NCBI GenBank assembly: GCA_947627485.1
Contig: CANQWF010000039.1
Coordinates: forward strand, 1-11,512
DNA from: an uncultured Clostridia bacterium
Lineage (GTDB): Bacteria > Bacillota > Clostridia > TANB77 > CAG-508
DNA: 11,512 nt
Direction: 5' to 3'
The notes under the pieces are model-generated. The model was not told the origin of the DNA. It saw only the letters and a list, made by a program, of their open reading frames with translations, and ran no database searches. Below, piece by piece: positions 1 to 7,990 of this stretch. Position 1 is the first letter of the stretch. Each line of letters opens with the position of its first letter. The position numbers and the translations under genes are program-made.

Positions 1-2162
1 CTCAAGATTTTTCTATGAGATACATGATGATTGATGGACATGGAAACTTTGGATCTGTAGATGGAGATCCACCAGCTGCATATCGTTATACAGAAGCAAG
101 AATGTCTAAAATAGCTTTAAATATGCTTACAGATATAGAAAAAGATACTGTAGATTTTATGCCAAACTTTGATGATAGACTTCAAGAACCAGTTGTATTA
201 CCAGCAAAAATACCAGCATTACTCGCAAATGGATCATCTGGAATTGCTGTTGGTATGGCTACAAATATACCACCACATAATTTAAGCGAATTAATTGATG
301 GTGTAATTAAAATAATAGATGAAGATGAAGTTTCAAACGAAGATTTGATGTCTGTTATAAAAGGGCCAGACTTTCCAACGGGTGCAACAATTTTAGGTAG
401 AGAAGGTATAAAACAGGCATATACAACGGGTAGAGGAAAAATAACTTTAAGAGCAGAAGCTGAAATTGAAGAAATGAGTGGAAATAAACAAAGAATAATA
501 GTTTCTTCACTTCCATATCAAGTAAATAAAGCTAAATTAATTGAGCATATTGCAGATCTTGTAAAAGAAAAAAGAATAGAAGGAATATCTGCGATAAGAG
601 ATGAATCAGACAGAGAAGAAAAAGTAAGAATAGTTATAGAATTAAAAAGAGATGCAAATCCACAAGTAGTTTTAAATCAATTATATAAAAATACACAAAT
701 GCAAGACACATTTGGAATTATAATGCTTGCATTGGTAGATGGAAAACCTGAAATACTAACATTAAGGCAATGTTTAGACCATTATATTGAGCATAGAAAA
801 GTAGTAGTTTTAAGAAGAACAAAATTTGAACTTGATAAAGCAGAAGCAAGAGCACATATTTTGGAAGGATTAAAAATAGCATTAGACAATATTGATGAAG
901 TAATTAATATTATTAGGTCAGCCTATGATGATGCAAAAGAAAGGTTAATGGAAAGATTTGGTCTATCTGAAATACAAGCACAAGCAATTCTTGATATGAG
1001 ATTAAAAACATTATCAGGTCTGCAAAGAGAAAAAATAGAAGAAGAATATAAACAGTTAATGGAATTAATAGCTCATTTAAAAGAAATTTTATCTAGTGAG
1101 ACTCTAGTTTATGGAATAATAAAAGATGAGTTATTAGAAATAAAAGAAAAATATGGAGACGAAAGAAAAACAAAAATCATTGCAGCAGAAGGTGAAATAG
1201 ACATAGAAGACTTAATAAAAGAAGAACAAACAGTAATTGCTTTAACACATTTTGGATATATAAAAAGAATGCCTATTAATACATATAGAAGTCAAAAAAG
1301 AGGCGGAAAAGGAATTACGGGAATTGCTACAAGAGAAGAAGATTTTGTAAAACAAATATTTACAGCTTCTACACATGATACAATTTTATTCTTTAGTAAT
1401 AAAGGAAAACTATATAAATTAAGAGGATATGAAGTTCCAGAAGCGGGTAGAACAGCCAGAGGAACAGCAATTGTAAATTTATTAAGTTTGGATGCAGGAG
1501 AAAAAATTTCAGCTATAATACCAATTCAAAACTTTGCAGAAGGTAAATACTTATTGTTCTGTACAAAAAATGGTATTATAAAGAAGACTGCACTTTCTGA
1601 ATATAATTCTGCAAGAAAAACAGGTTTATTATCTATAACATTAAAAGATGAAGATGAATTAATAGATGTAAGATTAACAGATGGAGAAGATAATATAGTT
1701 TTAGTTACAAGAAAAGGACTTGCAATTACATTCGATGAAAAAGACGTAAGACCTATGGGAAGAACATCTCAAGGAGTTATAGGAATAAGACTAAATAAAG
1801 ATGATTATGTTATAGGAATGGAATCAATAATCTCTGGAAGTACTGCAACACTTCTTGCAATAACAGAAAATGGATTTGGAAAAAGAACAGAAGTAGATGA
1901 ATATAGAGTTCAAACAAGAGGAGGAAAGGGTGTAATTACATATAAAATTACACCAAAAACAGGAGATATTGTTGGAATCAGAATAGTTGTTGATTCAGAT
2001 GATGTAATGTTAATTACAGATACAGGAACAATAATAAGAATTAGTGCAGCAGATATTAGTATACTTGGTAGATCAACACAAGGAGTTACTTTAATGAGAA
2101 CAAATGAAGGAAAAGTTGTAAGTATAGAAAAAGTACCTGAAGAAAAAGAAGTAGAAGAATAA
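1..2162 (+). CDS. gyrA: DNA gyrase subunit A, 5'-truncated by the window edge (last ~720 codons present)
   Basis: The frame is open back to nt 3 (QDFS precedes the ORF-track Met), so the Met at 15 is internal. The conserved block FSMRYMMIDGHGNFGS is present, as is the catalytic-Tyr motif AAYRYTEARM. A GyrA-box QKRGGKG at about nt 1290-1312 distinguishes GyrA from ParC. The C-terminal half has repeated beta-pinwheel blades and a short acidic tail. Stop is TAA at 2160-2162. Confidence 0.95.
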   Translation, partial: QDFSMRYMMIDGHGNFGSVDGDPPAAYRYTEARMSKIALNMLTDIEKDTVDFMPNFDDRLQEPVVLPAKIPALLANGSSGIAVGMATNIPPHNLSELIDGVIKIIDEDEVSNEDLMSVIKGPDFPTGATILGREGIKQAYTTGRGKITLRAEAEIEEMSGNKQRIIVSSLPYQVNKAKLIEHIADLVKEKRIEGISAIRDESDREEKVRIVIELKRDANPQVVLNQLYKNTQMQDTFGIIMLALVDGKPEILTLRQCLDHYIEHRKVVVLRRTKFELDKAEARAHILEGLKIALDNIDEVINIIRSAYDDAKERLMERFGLSEIQAQAILDMRLKTLSGLQREKIEEEYKQLMELIAHLKEILSSETLVYGIIKDELLEIKEKYGDERKTKIIAAEGEIDIEDLIKEEQTVIALTHFGYIKRMPINTYRSQKRGGKGITGIATREEDFVKQIFTASTHDTILFFSNKGKLYKLRGYEVPEAGRTARGTAIVNLLSLDAGEKISAIIPIQNFAEGKYLLFCTKNGIIKKTALSEYNSARKTGLLSITLKDEDELIDVRLTDGEDNIVLVTRKGLAITFDEKDVRPMGRTSQGVIGIRLNKDDYVIGMESIISGSTATLLAITENGFGKRTEVDEYRVQTRGGKGVITYKITPKTGDIVGIRIVVDSDDVMLITDTGTIIRISAADISILGRSTQGVTLMRTNEGKVVSIEKVPEEKEVEE

Positions 2163-2194
2163 TGGAAAAGATATAAATAAACTTATAAAAACTA

Positions 2195-2223
2195 TTGATT
2201 TAATTATAAAAAAATGTTAACAT
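2195..2223 (+). promoter_or_regulatory. Candidate sigma-A promoter for the ileS leader
   Basis: -35 TTGATT (2195-2200), 17-nt spacer, then an extended -10 TGtTAACAT (2215-2223). It lies about 58 nt upstream of T-box stem I. Recognised by eye in AT-rich DNA, so false positives are easy. Confidence 0.4.
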
Positions 2224-2280
2224 AGTAAAATAAGATAAATAAAAACAAAGAAAAGGACAAGGCAAATAATAGTAAAACTA

Positions 2281-2480
2281 ACAGAGAGTTAAACAAATGG
2301 TGAAAGTTTAATTAGAAAATAGATTATTTTGTTATCACCTTGGAGTTGCTTAAGTGAATAAAAGTAATTTAAGTCGTAAATCTGCGTTAAAGATAAAAGA
2401 GATGTATAAATTAAAAAATTTATATAAATTAGGTGGTACCGCGTGTAAAAACCTCGCCCTATGTTATGGGCGAGGTTTTT
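2281..2480 (+). promoter_or_regulatory. T-box riboswitch leader, isoleucine specifier (AUC)
   Basis: AGAGAG at the stem-I base (2283-2288). Distal-loop GGTGAAAG (2299-2306). Specifier ATC followed by a purine A (2334-2337). F-box-like GCGTTA (2394-2399). Stem III hairpin TATAAATT/AATTTATA (2405-2424). Conserved T-box sequence AAATTAGGTGGTACCGCG (2427-2443) directly precedes a terminator hairpin. It sits immediately upstream of ileS. Confidence 0.88.
2447..2480 (+). terminator. Intrinsic terminator of the T-box leader (attenuator)
   Basis: Perfect 13-bp stem AAAAACCTCGCCC (2447-2459) / GGGCGAGGTTTTT (2468-2480) with an 8-nt loop, ending in a T5 run. Its 5' half can alternatively pair with the T-box sequence to form the antiterminator. 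Confidence 0.85.
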
Positions 2481-2542
2481 AGTTAAGGTTAAAAGCGAGT
2501 ACTATCTAATTTAACTTAAAAACATTTAAGGGAGGAATAAAT

Positions 2543-5320
2543 ATGAGTGAAGAAAAAAAGGACTATGGAAAAACACTGAATTTACCAAAAACAGATTTTC
2601 CAATGAGAGCAAGCTTGCCAGAAAGGGAGCCAGAAATTGAAAAAGAAATTTTTGATAACGATTTGTATGAAAAAATACTAAAGAAAAATGAAGGACATGA
2701 ACATTTTGTATTACATGATGGACCTCCTTATGCAAATGGTGAAATTCATATTGGCCATGCTTTAAATAAAATTTTAAAAGATACTATCATAAGATATAAA
2801 GCATTAAAGGGATATTATACTCCATATGTACCTGGATTTGATACACATGGTATGCCAACAGAGAAGAAAGCGATTGAAAAATTAGGATTAGATAGAGATA
2901 AAATTTCAGTGTCTGAATTTAGAAATACATGTTTAGATTTTTCAAAAAATTATATAAAAAAACAAATTGAAGGATTTAAAAGAGTCGGTGTATTAGGTGA
3001 TTGGAAAAATCCATATATTACATATGATCCAAGACTTGAAGCAAGACAGATTGGTGTATTTTTTGATATGTATCAAAAAGGGTATATGTATAAAGGATTA
3101 AAGCCTGTTTATTGGTGTACAGATTGTGAAACAGCACTTGCTGAAGCAGAGATTGAATATCAAGATGTTGATACAACATCTATATATGTTAAATTTGAAG
3201 TGTTAGATAGCAAAGATAAATTTGATAAAGAAAATACATATTTTGTAATATGGACTACAACACCATGGACATTGCCAGGAAATGTTGGAATAACAATTGG
3301 TGGAGAATTTGAATATTCAATTGTAAAAACAGAAAATGAAAAATTAATAATTGCTACAGAATTAGTAGATAACGTAATGAAAGAAGCAGGAATAGAAAAA
3401 TATGAAACAATTCAAACAATATCAGGATCTGAATTAGAAGGTGTTATTTGTAAACATCCATTCCTAGATAGAGAATCAAGAGTAGTTCTCGGAAGTGATG
3501 ATACAATTGTTGTTGATTTAGGAACTGGTACAGGTGCAGTTCATACAGCACCAGGATATGGTAAAGAAGACTATTTATGTGGTATAAAAAATGGTTTAGA
3601 CATAGTAGTAACTGTTGATGGAAAAGGTTTCCAAACAGAAGGTGCTGGAATCTTTGCAGGACTTAAGTATGATGAATCTAATGACAAAATTATAGAATGG
3701 TTAGAAGATAATAAATATTTATTGCATAAACAAAAATTAAATCACTCATATCCACATTGCTGGAGATGTAAAAATCCTATTATATTTAGAGCAACAGAGC
3801 AATGGTTCTGCAGTGTAGATAAATTTAGAGAAAAGGCAGTAGAGGAGTCACAAAAAGTAGAATGGATTCCAGGTTGGGGTCTAGACCGAATAGCAAACAT
3901 GATAAGAGAAAGAGTTGATTGGTGTATATCAAGACAACGTACATGGGGTGTTCCAATTCCAATTTTCTATTGTAAAGAGTGTGGAAAAGAATATGTAACA
4001 GATAAAACTATAGAGAAACTTAAAGAAATATTTAAAGAAAAAGGCTCAAATGCATGGTGGGATTTAAGTGTACAAGAATTAATGCAAGAAGGAGCAAAAT
4101 GTGAAAAGTGTGGTTCTACAGAATTTGTAAAAGAAACAGATATAATGGATGTATGGTTTGATTCTGGTTCAACACATCAAAGTGTATTGGTTGAAAGAGG
4201 AATAGATTACCCTGCAGACCTTTATTTAGAAGGTGCAGACCAATATAGAGGATGGTTTCAATCTTCACTACTTACATCAGTTGCAACAAAAGGAATTGCT
4301 CCATATAAACAAGTGTTAACACACGGATGGACGGTAGATGGAGAAGGCAAAAAAATGTCTAAGAGTTTAGGAAATGGAATTAGCCCACAAGAAGTTATAA
4401 AAGAATATGGGGCAGACATATTAAGGCTTTGGGTCCTTTCATCAGATTACCAATCAGATGTAAGCTTATCTAAAGATATATTAAAACAAATAACCGAAGT
4501 ATATAGAAAAATTAGAAACACAGCAAGATATATATTAGGAAATATATCAGATTTTGATCCAAATAAAGATATGGTAAAATATGAAGAATTAGAAGAAATA
4601 GATAAATATGCATTATTGAAATTAAATGATTTAATTAGAAAATGCACATCAAGTTATGATAAATATGACTTCCATGAGGCATATCAAGCAATTAACATTT
4701 TCTGCGTTACTGATATGAGTAGTTTTTATTTGGATATAATTAAAGATAGATTATATAGTTCAAAAGTAGCTTCTAAGGCCAGAAGAGCTGCACAAACAAC
4801 AATGTATATTATATTAAGTTCATTAGTAAAAATACTTGCACCACTTACAGCATTTACAGCTGAAGAAATTTGGAAATATATGCCTAAAACAGAAGATATG
4901 AATGTAGAAAGCGTAATGCTTACAAATTATCCAACTGTAAATGAACAATATGAAAATAAAGATCTAAGAGAAAAATGGGAAAAAATAGTTGATATTAAAG
5001 AAATCGTTTCAAAAAAATTAGAAGAAGCTAGAGCAGAAAAAATAATAGGACATTCATTAAATGCAAAAGTTGTACTTTATGCAGAAGGGAATTTATATAC
5101 ATTTATAAAAGAAAATTTAGAATTATTACAAACCGTATTTATAACATCTGGACTAGAAGTAGAAGAAAATAGTAGAGCAGATGAGATAAAATTAGGTGTA
5201 AAAATAGAACAAGCCGAAGGTGAAAAATGTGAAAGATGTTGGAAATATTCTACTACAGTAGGAGAAGACAAAGAAAATCCAAGTATCTGTCATAGATGCA
5301 GTGAAGTTTTAAACAAATAA
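2543..5320 (+). CDS. ileS: Isoleucine--tRNA ligase (type 1, bacterial)
   Basis: 925 aa. RBS GGGAGG lies upstream of the ATG at 2543. HIGH motif at nt 2747-2758 (PPYANGEIHIGHALNK). KMSKS at nt 4352-4366. CP1 editing-domain signature GTGAVHTAPGYG. WCISRQRTWG block. C-terminal zinc motif CERCWKY...CHRC. The Ile-specific T-box upstream agrees with the call. Confidence 0.97.
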   Translation: MSEEKKDYGKTLNLPKTDFPMRASLPEREPEIEKEIFDNDLYEKILKKNEGHEHFVLHDGPPYANGEIHIGHALNKILKDTIIRYKALKGYYTPYVPGFDTHGMPTEKKAIEKLGLDRDKISVSEFRNTCLDFSKNYIKKQIEGFKRVGVLGDWKNPYITYDPRLEARQIGVFFDMYQKGYMYKGLKPVYWCTDCETALAEAEIEYQDVDTTSIYVKFEVLDSKDKFDKENTYFVIWTTTPWTLPGNVGITIGGEFEYSIVKTENEKLIIATELVDNVMKEAGIEKYETIQTISGSELEGVICKHPFLDRESRVVLGSDDTIVVDLGTGTGAVHTAPGYGKEDYLCGIKNGLDIVVTVDGKGFQTEGAGIFAGLKYDESNDKIIEWLEDNKYLLHKQKLNHSYPHCWRCKNPIIFRATEQWFCSVDKFREKAVEESQKVEWIPGWGLDRIANMIRERVDWCISRQRTWGVPIPIFYCKECGKEYVTDKTIEKLKEIFKEKGSNAWWDLSVQELMQEGAKCEKCGSTEFVKETDIMDVWFDSGSTHQSVLVERGIDYPADLYLEGADQYRGWFQSSLLTSVATKGIAPYKQVLTHGWTVDGEGKKMSKSLGNGISPQEVIKEYGADILRLWVLSSDYQSDVSLSKDILKQITEVYRKIRNTARYILGNISDFDPNKDMVKYEELEEIDKYALLKLNDLIRKCTSSYDKYDFHEAYQAINIFCVTDMSSFYLDIIKDRLYSSKVASKARRAAQTTMYIILSSLVKILAPLTAFTAEEIWKYMPKTEDMNVESVMLTNYPTVNEQYENKDLREKWEKIVDIKEIVSKKLEEARAEKIIGHSLNAKVVLYAEGNLYTFIKENLELLQTVFITSGLEVEENSRADEIKLGVKIEQAEGEKCERCWKYSTTVGEDKENPSICHRCSEVLNK

Positions 5321-5329
5321 TTAAAATTT

Positions 5330-5366
5330 AAAGACGTAAAATAATAAATTGTTATTTTACGTCTTT
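5330..5366. terminator. Bidirectional hairpin terminator between convergent ileS and the helicase-loader gene
   Basis: Perfect 15-bp stem AAAGACGTAAAATAA (5330-5344) / TTATTTTACGTCTTT (5352-5366) with a 7-nt loop. A/T runs are built into and flank both arms. It sits 10 nt after the ileS stop and about 40 nt after the minus-strand stop at 5405. Confidence 0.7.
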
Positions 5367-5404
5367 AATAATATCAGTATAAAAAATATAGAATAATTTA
5401 TATA

Positions 5405-6403
5405 TTATTTTTTTAATCTTATATCATCACCATAGAATCTATATATATCGTAATAACCAATAAATCTTGAGACTAGACGTTCATCATAAGTATTAAACAA
5501 CCCTTTTAAATCTAAATTAGTAGATATAATTGTTTTTAATGGGTTATTATTTTGGCTTAGAAGTCTAGTATTTATTATTTTATATAATTCAGTAAATTTC
5601 ATGCTATTCATAGTTTCTGTACCTAGGTCATCTATTACTAATAAATTGGCTGTTAGTAAACTGTTAGAAATTCCAGTTTGATTTTCAGGTTTAGCAAATA
5701 AATCTGAGATTAAATTATCAAGCATTACTGGTGCTGTTTGATACATAACTGTTTTTCCCTGTTTTATTAATTCATTAACAATACAATTAGAAATAAAAGT
5801 TTTACCAAGACCAGTACCACCTGTAAAAATTAAATTTTTAGTATCACTATTCTCAAAATTGAGTATAAAATTTTCTGCAGCTTTTTTTATATCAATAATA
5901 TTTTCTCTAGGTGATATAGGTGAATTATATTTACTTTCATCGACTTTATCAGAGAAAAGATTAACATTAAAATTATTAAATGTTTGATTATCAATATTAT
6001 TTATATTTTTTTGGTTATATTCTAAATTATATAGTTTTTGTTTTAGACAATTACACATTATAGATTTTCCATTTTCAAAAATATAACCAGTATCTTTGCA
6101 AATAGAACAATCATATTTTACAGATAAATAATCTTTAGGAATATTAATAGAATTTAATATTTTTTCTTTTTCCTTTTTTAAAGATTCAATTCTTTGTTTT
6201 AAATTTTCTAGAGATTCTTTAGAATTATTTTTTAATATTTCTTTTGCAGTATTTATAGAAATATTACTTAACTGCTCATCTAATTTTTCTAATTTAGGAT
6301 TAGACATATATAATTCTTTTTTTCGATTTTCTGCATCTCGTAGATGTATTAGTCTTTTTTGCTCATATTGTTTTAATAAATCATTCAATATTAGAGTATT
6401 CAT
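5405..6403 (-). CDS. AAA+ replicative helicase loader, DnaI/DnaC (IstB-like ATPase) family
   Basis: 332 aa. Walker A GGTGLGKTF. Walker B LLVIDDLGTE. Sensor-like ISTN and the C-terminal RL.SR motif typical of DnaC/DnaI/IstB. N-terminal coiled-coil followed by a Cys4 motif CSIC...CNC, as in the DnaI zinc-binding N-domain. The start overlaps the upstream stop (ATGA at 6400-6403). RBS GAAGGTG. Confidence 0.8.
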   Translation of the reverse strand: MNTLILNDLLKQYEQKRLIHLRDAENRKKELYMSNPKLEKLDEQLSNISINTAKEILKNNSKESLENLKQRIESLKKEKEKILNSINIPKDYLSVKYDCSICKDTGYIFENGKSIMCNCLKQKLYNLEYNQKNINNIDNQTFNNFNVNLFSDKVDESKYNSPISPRENIIDIKKAAENFILNFENSDTKNLIFTGGTGLGKTFISNCIVNELIKQGKTVMYQTAPVMLDNLISDLFAKPENQTGISNSLLTANLLVIDDLGTETMNSMKFTELYKIINTRLLSQNNNPLKTIISTNLDLKGLFNTYDERLVSRFIGYYDIYRFYGDDIRLKK

Positions 6404-7374
6404 CTATTCACCTTCTTATTAGCATATAAGTCATCTAGATTATCATAGTTTCTTTGTTCATAGTTATTATAATTAGTTTGTTTTTCTAACTGTTTAATAT
6501 TTTTCTTTTTTTGTTTTATTTCTATTAAGAAATTATTTACATCAGTTTCAGTTTTTAGATTTCTATCATGCCAATCAGATATTAATTTATCTAAATAATC
6601 AAAACTAGGATTAGCTTTTGATGTAGTTTTTTTAAGAGCTATATTTATTACTTTTAAATCATAGCCATATTCTAATACCCATTTTTCAATATATGCTTCC
6701 TCAAATTGAGTAAGTGGCGAATATCTTCCTAGTTTTTTTGCTATATCTTTTTTAATCTTATTTAAAGATTCCTGCTTTGACGAGTAAACTTCTAAATCCT
6801 CATAAGTTTTTACATTACATTTACTCCAAGCTTCAGCAACGGTTTTTACATAGTTTTTATGAAGAGCAGATTTATTAAAGCAGTAATCAAAAAGTGAAAT
6901 CATTACTTGCTCATCAAATTCATATTTTTTAAACCATAAATCAATATCACTGTACCAAGCAGGAGACATTACACCTTGAAAATACATGTTATTAATACAC
7001 TCAATTGCTTTTGCTCGATACTGACTATCTTCATTTTTTTGTATATCATCTTTAGATAGAGTAAGATTTGGAGAATATAATTTGTGCAGTTCAATTTCTC
7101 TTAAATCATTTAAAATATATCCATTTGCTTTTTTTATTAAAACACCTTTTTCTTCCCAATAGCTAAGAGCTACTTGAATAGTTTGCAAAGGTATATTTAA
7201 TTTTTTAGATAAATCGTTAAGTTTTATATCTTTTTCATATTTACTTAAGAAAACAAGGCATAAATACACCTTAATAAAATCACCATTTGCTTCACTTATA
7301 TATTCAGTAAAAAAAACATCTGGAATTTCAGTATAAGAAAAAAGCATAGAGCTATCTTTATTTTCAAGTTTCAT
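6400..7374 (-). CDS. DnaD-domain replication initiation / membrane attachment protein (B. subtilis DnaB/DnaD-like)
   Basis: 324 aa. N-terminal winged-helix-like region. Two tandem DnaD-type C-terminal repeats (YFQGVMSPAWYSDIDLWFKKYEF...YVKTVAEAW and LTQFEEAYIEKWVLEYGYDLKVINIALKK...SFDYLDKLISDWHDRN). Translationally coupled to the downstream loader, which is the classic Firmicute pairing. RBS GGGGGA. Confidence 0.8.
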   Translation of the reverse strand: MKLENKDSSMLFSYTEIPDVFFTEYISEANGDFIKVYLCLVFLSKYEKDIKLNDLSKKLNIPLQTIQVALSYWEEKGVLIKKANGYILNDLREIELHKLYSPNLTLSKDDIQKNEDSQYRAKAIECINNMYFQGVMSPAWYSDIDLWFKKYEFDEQVMISLFDYCFNKSALHKNYVKTVAEAWSKCNVKTYEDLEVYSSKQESLNKIKKDIAKKLGRYSPLTQFEEAYIEKWVLEYGYDLKVINIALKKTTSKANPSFDYLDKLISDWHDRNLKTETDVNNFLIEIKQKKKNIKQLEKQTNYNNYEQRNYDNLDDLYANKKVNR

Positions 7375-7404
7375 AGTATAATTCCCCCAAAATTTAGTAT
7401 ACCA

Positions 7405-7433
7405 ATTATACCATTTTAATTAAACTATTACAA
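7405..7433 (-). promoter_or_regulatory. Candidate sigma-A promoter for the DnaD-like/loader operon
   Basis: Read on the minus strand: -35 TTGTAA (7428-7433), 17-nt spacer, extended -10 TGgTATAAT (-10 hexamer at 7405-7410). It lies about 30 nt upstream of the ATG at 7374. Confidence 0.5.
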
Positions 7434-7472
7434 CCAAGAAATATAAAAATACATTATTTTTAATTAAAATCA

Positions 7473-7760
7473 TTACTTATCCTTACTATAGAAATAAATT
7501 TTAGGATTCTTGATAAATTTAAAAAGATATATTAATACATATACAAAGTTTTCGTGATTAAATCCTATAAGACTAAACAAAAGAAGAGGAAAACAAAAGA
7601 TAATTAAGAGTGATATTTTAATTGATAAATTCGAGATAAAAATGTCAAGCAAACAAAAAACAAATGCATCCCATATAATATTAAGTGCTAATGTGGAATA
7701 GTCTATAATTCCAAATAATTTATTTTTAAATGTATAGTTTTGTGGAAAAGTATATTTCAT
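7473..7760 (-). CDS. Small two-TM membrane protein, possibly TcpE/PrgI (VirB3-like) conjugation family
   Basis: 95 aa. RBS AAGGAG lies 10 nt upstream of the ATG. There is a short polar N-terminus (YTFKNKLFGIIDY), two hydrophobic helices, and a basic tail (FIKNPKIYFYSKDK). From memory, this resembles Tn916 ORF17/TcpE-type proteins. The family call is tentative; coding status is likely. Confidence 0.45.
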   Translation of the reverse strand: MKYTFPQNYTFKNKLFGIIDYSTLALNIIWDAFVFCLLDIFISNLSIKISLLIIFCFPLLLFSLIGFNHENFVYVLIYLFKFIKNPKIYFYSKDK

Positions 7761-7817
7761 TTTATAAAGTCTCCTTTATCTGTAATTAGTTATATAAATT
7801 TCAATTTGTTTTTTTAA

Positions 7818-7963
7818 GTTCTTTAGGAAAGGTTATAATTATTTGTTTCCAACGCGAATTCCGTTACTGAAACTGTAAGTTGCTAAAAGCAACAACAGTT
7901 TCATGTAACGAAAGCTGGATCGCGTAACTGAGAAACAAATAATTATTAACCTTTCCTACGAAC
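7818..7963. repeat. ~146-nt nested imperfect inverted repeat (extended hairpin) in an intergenic spacer
   Basis: Outer arms are 7824-7849 TAGGAAAGGTTATAATTATTTGTTTC and 7932-7958, giving 26 bp with one bulged T. GTTC/GAAC (7818-7821 / 7960-7963) extends them. Inner helices are ACGCGA/TCGCGT (7852-7857 / 7920-7925), CGTTAC/GTAACG (7862-7867 / 7905-7910), TGAAACTGT/ACAGTTTCA (7868-7876 / 7895-7903) and GTTGCT/AGCAAC (7879-7884 / 7888-7893), with an AAA apical loop. That is about 57 bp in total. The core is clearly more GC-rich than its surroundings. Confidence 0.85.
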
Positions 7964-7990
7964 TAATTAAACATTTCTATAAACAACAAT

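Follow-up and report, generated by a model that had tools for sequence, protein, structure and literature searches.

The closest analogues of the element described here are the Correia and ERIC-type MITEs and the small repeats of Firmicutes, and it fits no named family. Correia elements (CREE) of Neisseria are MITEs of about 100 to 155 bp with 26-bp terminal inverted repeats. The window, meaning the whole stretch of 11,512 nucleotides from an uncultured Clostridia bacterium that was analyzed, contains a hairpin-forming element that resembles them in its similar size, its 26-bp terminal inverted repeat, its intergenic location within an operon, and its presence or absence from strain to strain. 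Correia elements reach >100 copies per genome and duplicate a TA, in contrast to the window element, which is without a second copy in the collections searched and has a candidate duplication of 9 bp. The two show no sequence similarity, and the window element is a continuous rod throughout rather than at its ends only. The original Correia element was described as 204 bp long, and Correia hairpins contained in mRNAs are cut by RNase III when the paired repeats are transcribed (PMC10969869). ERIC elements alter mRNA decay through RNase E (PMC10969869). Like the ERIC/IRU elements of the Enterobacteriaceae (about 127 bp), the window element is an imperfect palindrome over its whole length, similar in size and situated in intergenic DNA that is probably transcribed, including intra-operon spacers. 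ERIC elements are a conserved multi-copy family of Proteobacteria with 30 to >700 copies, whereas the window element is a singleton in the scanned data and shares no sequence with them.

REP dimers are known inside larger target palindromes (PMC3733652), an arrangement resembling the shared outer stem around variable inner hairpins at the present locus. REP dimers and REPINs are GTAG-tagged palindromic repeats that RAYT transposases mobilize. As in these repeats, a long hairpin is built from two inverted halves, and one end reads GTAG on the minus strand. The halves of a REPIN are short palindromes of 20 to 40 nt each, whereas those of the window element do not self-fold; folded alone, they reach z-scores of −0.6 to +0.4, compared to −2.3 and −3.0 for the GTAG-bearing, GC-rich monomers of locus L012 used as a control. 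Further differences from REPINs are the other end of the element, which reads TTAG, its AT-rich composition outside the core, and the lack of a RAYT gene in the window. With halves that are not palindromic alone, GTAG at a single end, and no CGTC, an assignment as a REPIN or REP dimer was rejected.

RUP, BOX, and SPRITE of Streptococcus pneumoniae and bcr1 of the Bacillus cereus group are small repeats of Firmicutes. The window element shares with them a non-coding length of about 100 to 200 bp, a low-GC Gram-positive host, a stable stem-loop, an intergenic or intra-operon position, and variability among strains. These repeats are defined multi-copy families with a consensus, to which no similarity of the window element is shown, nor is multiplicity. 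The unusual aspect of the present locus is that unrelated hairpins occupy the same few bases of near-identical strains inside a shared outer palindrome.

Genomic setting and architecture of the hairpin

The plus strand of the window carries gyrA, whose 5' end is cut by the window start, a T-box leader (positions 2239 to 2464; 94.9 bits in Rfam), and ileS. The minus strand carries, in order of transcription, a 136-aa open reading frame (ORF), a 436-aa ORF, a gene for a 110-aa protein, the 294-aa gene, the hairpin, the 95-aa gene, a DnaD-like gene whose product contains a DnaB_2 domain, and a DnaC/DnaI-like gene. The hairpin lies in the spacer between the 294-aa stop codon and the 95-aa start codon (7761 to 7990), which measures 230 nt, in agreement with the original prediction. 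The flanking features and the parts of the hairpin are as follows.

7473 to 7760, minus strand: downstream gene, 95-aa membrane protein, no family match
7771 to 7776, minus strand: AAGGAG ribosome-binding site of the 95-aa gene, read from the sequence and kept downstream of the insert
7818 to 7963, no strand assigned: hairpin, a 146-nt near-perfect palindrome (rod) with 62 pairs, 61 of them Watson-Crick on either strand
7824 to 7849, no strand assigned: left arm of the basal stem, 26 bp, candidate terminal inverted repeat TAGGAAAGGTTATAATTATTTGTTTC, containing TATAAT at 7834 to 7839
7850 to 7931, no strand assigned: GC-enriched core (41% GC) with the inner helices, asymmetric loops, and an AAA apical loop at 7885 to 7887
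7932 to 7958, no strand assigned: right basal-stem arm, containing a single bulged base; the minus-strand reading starts with GTAG (7959 to 7956)
7991 to 8875, minus strand: upstream gene, encoding a polytopic membrane protein of 294 aa without a match in Pfam or NCBIfam

The 294-aa protein has >1500 homologues, and nearly all of the 120 that were listed are 293 to 297 aa long. The two flanking genes had been labeled VirB6-like and TcpE-like; these labels are not supported, as neither protein matches any family in Pfam or NCBIfam. Together, the 136-aa and 436-aa ORFs show weak homology to coupling proteins of the VirD4/TrwB/TraD type. The match to TrwB_AAD_bind of Pfam passes narrowly (22.7 bits, with a cut-off of 20.5), and that to TraD of NCBIfam, at 21.4 bits, lies far under the cut-off. 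The match of the 110-aa protein to a T4SS pilin is sub-threshold, and the window contains no relaxase, VirB4, or Rep gene. The coupling-protein gene shows a +1 frameshift inside its Walker A motif, which is conserved in all relatives examined except L045. Among 3376 codons counted, CGG occurs only at the frameshift site. This frameshift is the most interesting thing in the window and is unrelated to the hairpin.

The order of the 294-aa, 95-aa, dnaD-like, dnaC/dnaI-like, ileS, and gyrA genes is kept in uncultured low-GC Clostridia. Many metagenome-assembled genomes share a larger neighborhood consisting of VanW, LexA-like, tRNA genes, DUF1858, the cluster, dnaD, dnaI, ileS, and gyrA, with protein identities ranging from 68% to 99%, and in one locus (L013), parB, parA, gidB, and gidA lie near the cluster. 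By its conserved surroundings, the gene cluster belongs to the core chromosome and not to a visible mobile element.

As plus-strand RNA, positions 7818 to 7963 fold into one unbranched rod with 62 pairs at −67.3 kcal/mol (z of −12.8; RNAfold), and the minus strand also gives a single unbranched rod at −70.7 kcal/mol (z of −13.7). None of 200 shuffles folds as stably, and the energy computed for DNA is about −47 kcal/mol. The rod that had been predicted is present (z of about −13), with 62 pairs instead of the proposed 57 or so. The other predicted parts are found in the fold as well, namely, the 26-bp basal stem with one bulge, its 4-bp outer extension (7818 to 7821 paired with 7960 to 7963), the inner helices, the asymmetric loops, and the AAA apical loop. 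The terminal inverted repeat can be extended to arms of 40 nt with 75% complementarity, pairing 7810 to 7849 with 7932 to 7971. The arms are not an identical mirror image of each other, as they contain bulges and an asymmetric loop. Since either strand forms 61 Watson-Crick pairs out of 62, together with a single G-T pair, the pairing is that of a DNA-level inverted repeat and not that of an RNA fold maintained on one strand.

The higher GC content of the core relative to its surroundings, also part of the original prediction, is confirmed, with 41% in the core compared to 26% in the whole window and 15 to 16% in the remaining spacer. Only 1.4% of the 82-nt windows reach 41% GC, and the core is foreign to the other intergenic regions of the window, which show 12 to 25% GC. 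ORFs inside the element, whose size of 146 to 180 bp falls in the MITE range of about 50 to 500 bp, comprise only 15 to 24 codons and lack a clear ribosome-binding site. Among them are a 24-codon ORF starting with TTG at 7938, 12 nt past an AGGAAAGG stretch, and a 21-codon ORF, MKLLLLLATYSFSNGIRVGNK, on the minus strand from 7904, which lies inside the hairpin and also has no clear ribosome-binding site. The element has no convincing coding capacity.

Variation at the stop codon of the 294-aa gene

Spacer length, counted from the 294-aa stop codon to the start ATG of the 95-aa gene, was determined for every fetched locus, which yields 13 distinct haplotypes. The loci, designated by their L numbers, are distributed over the spacer lengths as follows.

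9 nt: L027 to L029, L031, L033, L035, and L036
11 nt: L008
12 nt: L030 and L034
18 nt: L011 to L014
20 nt: L019
21 nt: L045
31 nt: L009 and L010
At least 59 nt (contig ends): L020
116 nt: L037 to L044
142 nt: L032
143 nt: L015
230 nt: the window and L001

Short spacers of 9 to 31 nt occur in 8 of the 13 haplotypes and contain the ribosome-binding site as their sole content. The expanded spacers are mutually unrelated apart from a 12-nt common start, ATTGTWDTTTRT, found in four of them. No other lineage examined has the hairpin in its orthologous spacer. A covariance model of the hairpin, run over 24 sources (256 kb of related loci), recovers the window itself alone, and blastn with word sizes of 7 to 9, comparing all inserts with the fetched loci, detects nothing related to the window element. 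All copies of the hairpin that were found are identical in sequence. A dedicated, conserved structured RNA had been among the proposed roles, and its absence from orthologous spacers was set beforehand as a check counting against it. With no hairpin in the orthologous spacers, of which 8 of the 13 haplotypes are 9 to 31 nt long and the others are unrelated, the conserved-RNA reading does not hold.

In the tree built from the 294-aa gene, L019, a locus with a short spacer, falls between L020 and L037, both with expanded spacers. This placement implies that the site has gained and lost DNA repeatedly. The insert in L032 comprises 142 nt and forms multiple hairpins; on either side of it lies a perfect direct repeat of 9 bp, AATAAGAAA, which overlaps the stop codon. 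Its closest sampled relatives, L030 and L034, which are 95% identical in the 294-aa gene and have an identical 95-aa protein, show a spacer of 12 nt. Including that of L032, unrelated inserts lie at the same spot in three other lineages (L032, L037 to L044, and L020). The comparison of filled and empty sites, with 230 nt in the window versus 9 to 31 nt in 8 other haplotypes, shows that the insert is strain specific and lies at a hot spot directly downstream of the 294-aa stop codon. The features of the window that define the insertion site are listed below.

7802 to 7810, minus strand: AACAAATTG, imperfect (8/9) direct repeat of the stop-codon 9-mer and candidate target-site duplication, abutting the boundary of the variable segment
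7811 to 7980, no strand assigned: 170-nt variable segment, replaced in L015 by an unrelated 83-nt hairpin-forming segment (L015 3716 to 3798)
7987 to 7995, minus strand: AATAAATTG, 9-mer overlapping the TAA stop (7991 to 7993) of the 294-aa gene and partner of 7802 to 7810

AATAAATTG and AACAAATTG match in 8 of 9 positions, and AACAAATTG lies at a boundary defined independently by the comparison with L015. Such 9-mers are common in AT-rich DNA: allowing up to one mismatch, 18 matches occur in the window where 24 are expected. The pair is suggestive of a 9-bp target duplication.

L015 shows 99.65% identity to the window over positions 1 to 7810 and 99.4% over 7981 to 11512. Its 83-nt segment folds strongly (−57.5 kcal/mol; z of −9.7). 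Single-nucleotide differences between the two loci cluster near the spacer, with 10 in 7643 to 8247 and none in the 1.6 kb from 8248 to 9828. This clustering suggests that the alleles are older than their genomic background and have been exchanged by homologous recombination. The window allele is found under accessions ERZ27249xxx and ERR10663714, and the L015 allele is found under ERZ27060145 and ERR10663690-693; the similar numbering suggests that both could come from a shared study.

Origin of the palindrome

Many metagenome contigs break at or within the spacer, which would be in line with an artifact of assembly or amplification, such as a snap-back or an inverted chimera. De Bruijn graph assembly is expected to break contigs at palindromes. 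In the window, the hairpin is internal and is bordered on either side by the genes expected from synteny. L001 (ERZ27249013), an independent assembly, matches the whole spacer with 100% identity, and five more contigs from other samples (L002 to L006), which cover window positions 7761 to 7883 at most, start inside the arm nearest the 95-aa gene and are all identical. Because of this agreement of the complete spacer in L001 and of partial arms in five other samples, the hairpin is not an assembly artifact, an explanation that is scarcely credible. Among the loci compared, the window's own strain alone carries the hairpin, which independent assemblies of several samples recovered there.

Neither the 294-aa protein nor the IleS of the window has an exact match on record. 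Further copies were sought in DNA collections that exclude the window's own genome. A blastn search of the spacer against plasmids and phages gives no match, and three patterns, the terminal repeat (exact or degenerate) and two derived from the core, have 0 matches in IMG/VR. With the terminal-repeat pattern, one single-arm match is found among the GTDB species representatives, in a Flavobacteriales MAG, and five single-arm matches are found in the JGI metagenomes, in both cases with no similarity beyond the pattern. A parent insertion sequence is not indicated, as the terminal-repeat pattern has no genuine match in the scanned collections, which do not include the host genome. No transposase was seen.

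The hairpin is best explained, with a probability of roughly 0.6, as an orphan MITE-like palindromic insertion at a hot spot, about 146 to 180 bp long and bounded by terminal inverted repeats of 26 bp (up to about 40 bp). The insert is extra non-coding palindromic DNA in a spacer that normally holds a ribosome-binding site only. A MITE with 26-bp terminal inverted repeats had been one of four proposed roles. It fits best of the four through its inverted repeats, its polymorphism in presence or absence and by allelic replacement, its little coding capacity, and its possible 9-bp duplication; the lack of a second copy in the scanned collections counts against it. The element would have arrived by a transposition-like event duplicating about 9 bp (AATAAATTG), and homologous recombination would later have carried alleles from strain to strain. 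In bacteria, hairpin formation on the lagging strand and cleavage by SbcCD make long palindromes unstable. Such instability could explain the gains, losses, and replacements at this site.

The single copy in all accessible data, the almost perfect Watson-Crick complementarity of the arms, and the lack of a visible transposase or parent element are also what would be expected of a palindrome made locally, by inverted duplication or template switching in replication or repair, that was never mobile and persists as a neutral polymorphism. Against such a local origin, nothing similar to either arm is seen elsewhere in the window or in the L015 allele, leaving no visible source, and the core with its 41% GC is unlike the 15 to 16% of the surrounding spacer. 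The bulges and the asymmetric loop do not correspond to a fresh perfect duplication, and several unrelated inserts lie at the same point elsewhere, one of them between perfect direct repeats of 9 bp, a pattern more like insertion than duplication in place. A local origin is thus rather unlikely. It is more doubtful still that the few bases following the 294-aa stop codon serve as a dedicated landing site at which unrelated hairpin cassettes are swapped. Cassettes would possibly be placed there between the imperfect 9-bp direct repeat and the shared outer palindrome, even in strains that are 99.5% identical. If true, this would represent an undescribed palindrome-targeting or site-specific mobilization of orphan hairpins in uncultured low-GC Clostridia, with a mechanism distinct from classical multi-copy MITEs and REPIN/RAYT systems.

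A single-stranded-DNA element of a transfer module, in the form of an oriT, a single-strand origin, or a single-stranded-DNA promoter, had also been proposed. The neighboring genes include the weak VirD4/TrwB-like homologue and the sub-threshold T4SS pilin-like protein, and the palindrome would fold well as single-stranded DNA at −47 kcal/mol. The cluster, however, keeps its chromosomal neighbors (ileS, gyrA, and tRNA genes) across 68 to 99% protein identity, nearly all orthologous clusters lack the hairpin, and the window contains neither a relaxase nor a Rep gene. An oriT was rejected on the basis of the missing relaxase, the core chromosomal setting, and the missing hairpin in orthologous clusters. 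The CS-6 motif (TAGCGW), which ssoA-type single-strand origins of rolling-circle replicons carry in the terminal loop of a long palindrome, is absent from both strands; with this, the chromosomal context, and the lack of a Rep gene in the window, an ssoA-type origin was rejected. The stem has no −35 box at the right spacing from the TATAAT, whose frequency is at chance level. With these findings and the lack of conservation, the transfer proposal fails and is highly improbable in all three forms. An integron attC site was likewise rejected, as RYYYAAC and GTTRRRY, which delimit such sites at their 5' and 3' ends, are both absent from 7761 to 7990 on either strand.

Expected behavior in the operon transcript

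No terminator-like site is found on either strand in 7400 to 8200, and the sense strand past the hairpin shows a run of A. An intrinsic terminator, which requires a stem-loop with a T run, was therefore rejected, as the original prediction had already stated. The perfect TATAAT at 7834 to 7839 named in that prediction is present and has no apparent promoter role: the window contains 47 copies of the hexamer where 43 are expected, and in the promoter scan no listed site falls within the hairpin or uses this TATAAT. A sigma-70 promoter in the hairpin was rejected on these grounds. The sole promoter-like match between the two genes is weak (9/12) and lies on the minus strand from 7786 to 7759, ending at the ATG of the 95-aa gene.

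Because the two genes share a strand and the DNA between them offers no terminator and no promoter-like match other than this weak one, the hairpin is probably part of the operon mRNA. Transcribed in this way, the element would form a 62-bp duplex, which could act as a substrate of RNase III and as a barrier to exonucleases. RNase III needs roughly two helical turns, a length surpassed by the 62-bp duplex and its 26-bp basal helix. By analogy with the Correia hairpins, it is plausible that the hairpin is an RNase III target. The duplex would uncouple the 294-aa and 95-aa cistrons as a by-product and not as a conserved function. The downstream replication genes should not be endangered by the insert, since they have a good promoter-like site of their own on the minus strand from 7433 to 7405 (TTGTAA-17-TATAAT with an upstream TG; 10/12).

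A stronger claim would be that the hairpin is a functional cis-acting RNA for processing, stability, or insulation, or a small RNA, recruited to set the ratio of the 294-aa to the 95-aa product. In line with this claim, the hairpin lies on the sense strand inside an operon, in a spacer that contains no terminator and a single weak promoter-like match. As RNA it folds with extreme stability, and the L015 allele is also a strong hairpin, so that some hairpin might be favored in the sub-lineage. All other lineages lack the hairpin, however, most of them with a spacer of 9 to 31 nt, and it has no homologues, the covariance model recovering the window alone. The pairing is symmetric between the strands, with one G-U each, as for a DNA repeat. 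No promoter site lies in the hairpin, and its TATAAT is at chance frequency. In a cmscan of the whole window against Rfam at E values up to 1, the T-box leader is the only match and the hairpin is unmatched, consistent with the earlier statement that no named RNA family was recognized in it. A recruited RNA function is accordingly improbable.

The locus provides a caution, in that a statistically extreme hairpin beside secretion-like genes is here strain-specific inserted DNA and not a conserved RNA or a transfer origin. If transcribed, it offers a natural series of three alleles (230, 143, and about 20 nt) for the effects of an intercistronic duplex on tightly spaced genes. The very AT-rich and poorly known Clostridia lineage has spacers of fast turnover with palindromic inserts, which fragment metagenome assemblies. 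Dispersed GC-rich palindromic repeats are also found in other spacers of related genomes, at the following positions.

L012: 9692 to 9764
L013: about 9620 to 9701
L014: 5456 to 5525, 10380 to 10575, and 11390 to 11450

Some of these repeats are GTAG-tagged dimers.

The secretion-like cluster in its chromosomal setting

The secretion-like cluster comprises five genes and has counterparts in loci L008-L045, the orthologous contigs of relatives and other samples.

5405-10972, minus strand: five-gene secretion-like cluster with the split coupling protein and the 110-aa pilin-like, 294-aa and 95-aa proteins
8893-9225, minus strand: 110-aa pilin-like gene

The cluster adjoins dnaD and dnaI, and this chromosomal neighbourhood is retained in many uncultured low-GC Clostridia (L008-L045). 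Neither VirB4 nor a relaxase or integrase is seen with the cluster at window 5405-10972 or in these loci; the cluster therefore belongs to the core genome and is not a conjugative element. The gene calls for the pilin-like protein differ among relatives: its counterpart is called as two ORFs of 70 aa and 44 aa in L009, L011-L014 and L032, and no ORF is called in other relatives (L027-L031).

The coupling-protein gene split at Walker A

10972-10562 and 10551-9241, minus strand: VirD4/TrwB-like coupling-protein gene, two ORFs
10562-10570, minus strand: frameshift site TCA CGG TAA

A +1 frameshift splits the coupling-protein gene exactly within the Walker A motif (GTIGS/GKTSSVMYP). The split site, TCN-CGG-NAA-RAC with one additional C, is kept in all relatives examined, which show 68-99% protein identity in the neighbouring 294-aa gene, except L045. 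This locus alone contains the unbroken TCC GGA AAA ACT and a fused 574-aa ORF. The CGG at the frameshift site is the only such codon among the 3376 counted over the nine ORFs of the window. Because the split arrangement is conserved and CGG occurs only here, the site is a candidate for programmed +1 ribosomal frameshifting at a rare ("hungry") codon rather than the mark of a pseudogene.

SNPs that distinguish the window from L015, a 99.5%-identical strain, are clustered a second time in the N-terminal coupling-protein ORF, with 11 in 245 nt (10690-10934); this may be another recombination tract.

Variable spacers, REP-like repeats and contig breaks

A second site that varies among the window and its relatives is the spacer between dnaD and dnaI.

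L011 10239-10701; L012 9651-9817; L013 8830-9701: variable dnaD-dnaI spacer
L012 9692-9764; L013 about 9620-9701; L014 5456-5525, 10380-10575 and 11390-11450: GC-rich REP-like inverted dimers in intergenic spacers other than the one between the 294-aa and 95-aa genes

The two genes overlap in the window and are separated by 31 nt in L008, 463 nt in L011 and 167 nt in L012 and L014, where the spacer contains a GC-rich hairpin. In L013, dnaD is followed by two tRNA-Ser genes, and dnaI is not among the called genes. The REP-like dimers of the relatives have GTAG-type ends, e.g., CGTAGGGGCGGGCCC...GGGCCTGCCCCTACA, and sit at several sites within one genome; every unit tested from L012 folds by itself. 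Proteobacteria are the best-known hosts of GTAG-type REP repeats.

Across many samples, metagenome contigs break off at the spacer between the 294-aa and 95-aa genes or within it, at differing positions: L002-L006 begin inside the 146-nt hairpin, and L016-L018 stop 23 nt past the 294-aa gene's stop codon. De Bruijn graph assembly over a long palindrome is expected to give such breaks, and elements of this type will break up assemblies of the window's lineage.

The T-box leader of ileS

2239-2464, plus strand: T-box leader (Rfam RF00230; 94.9 bits, E 2.9e-20)

This leader precedes ileS and is accompanied by a terminator/antiterminator region, a strong one, at about 2400-2540.
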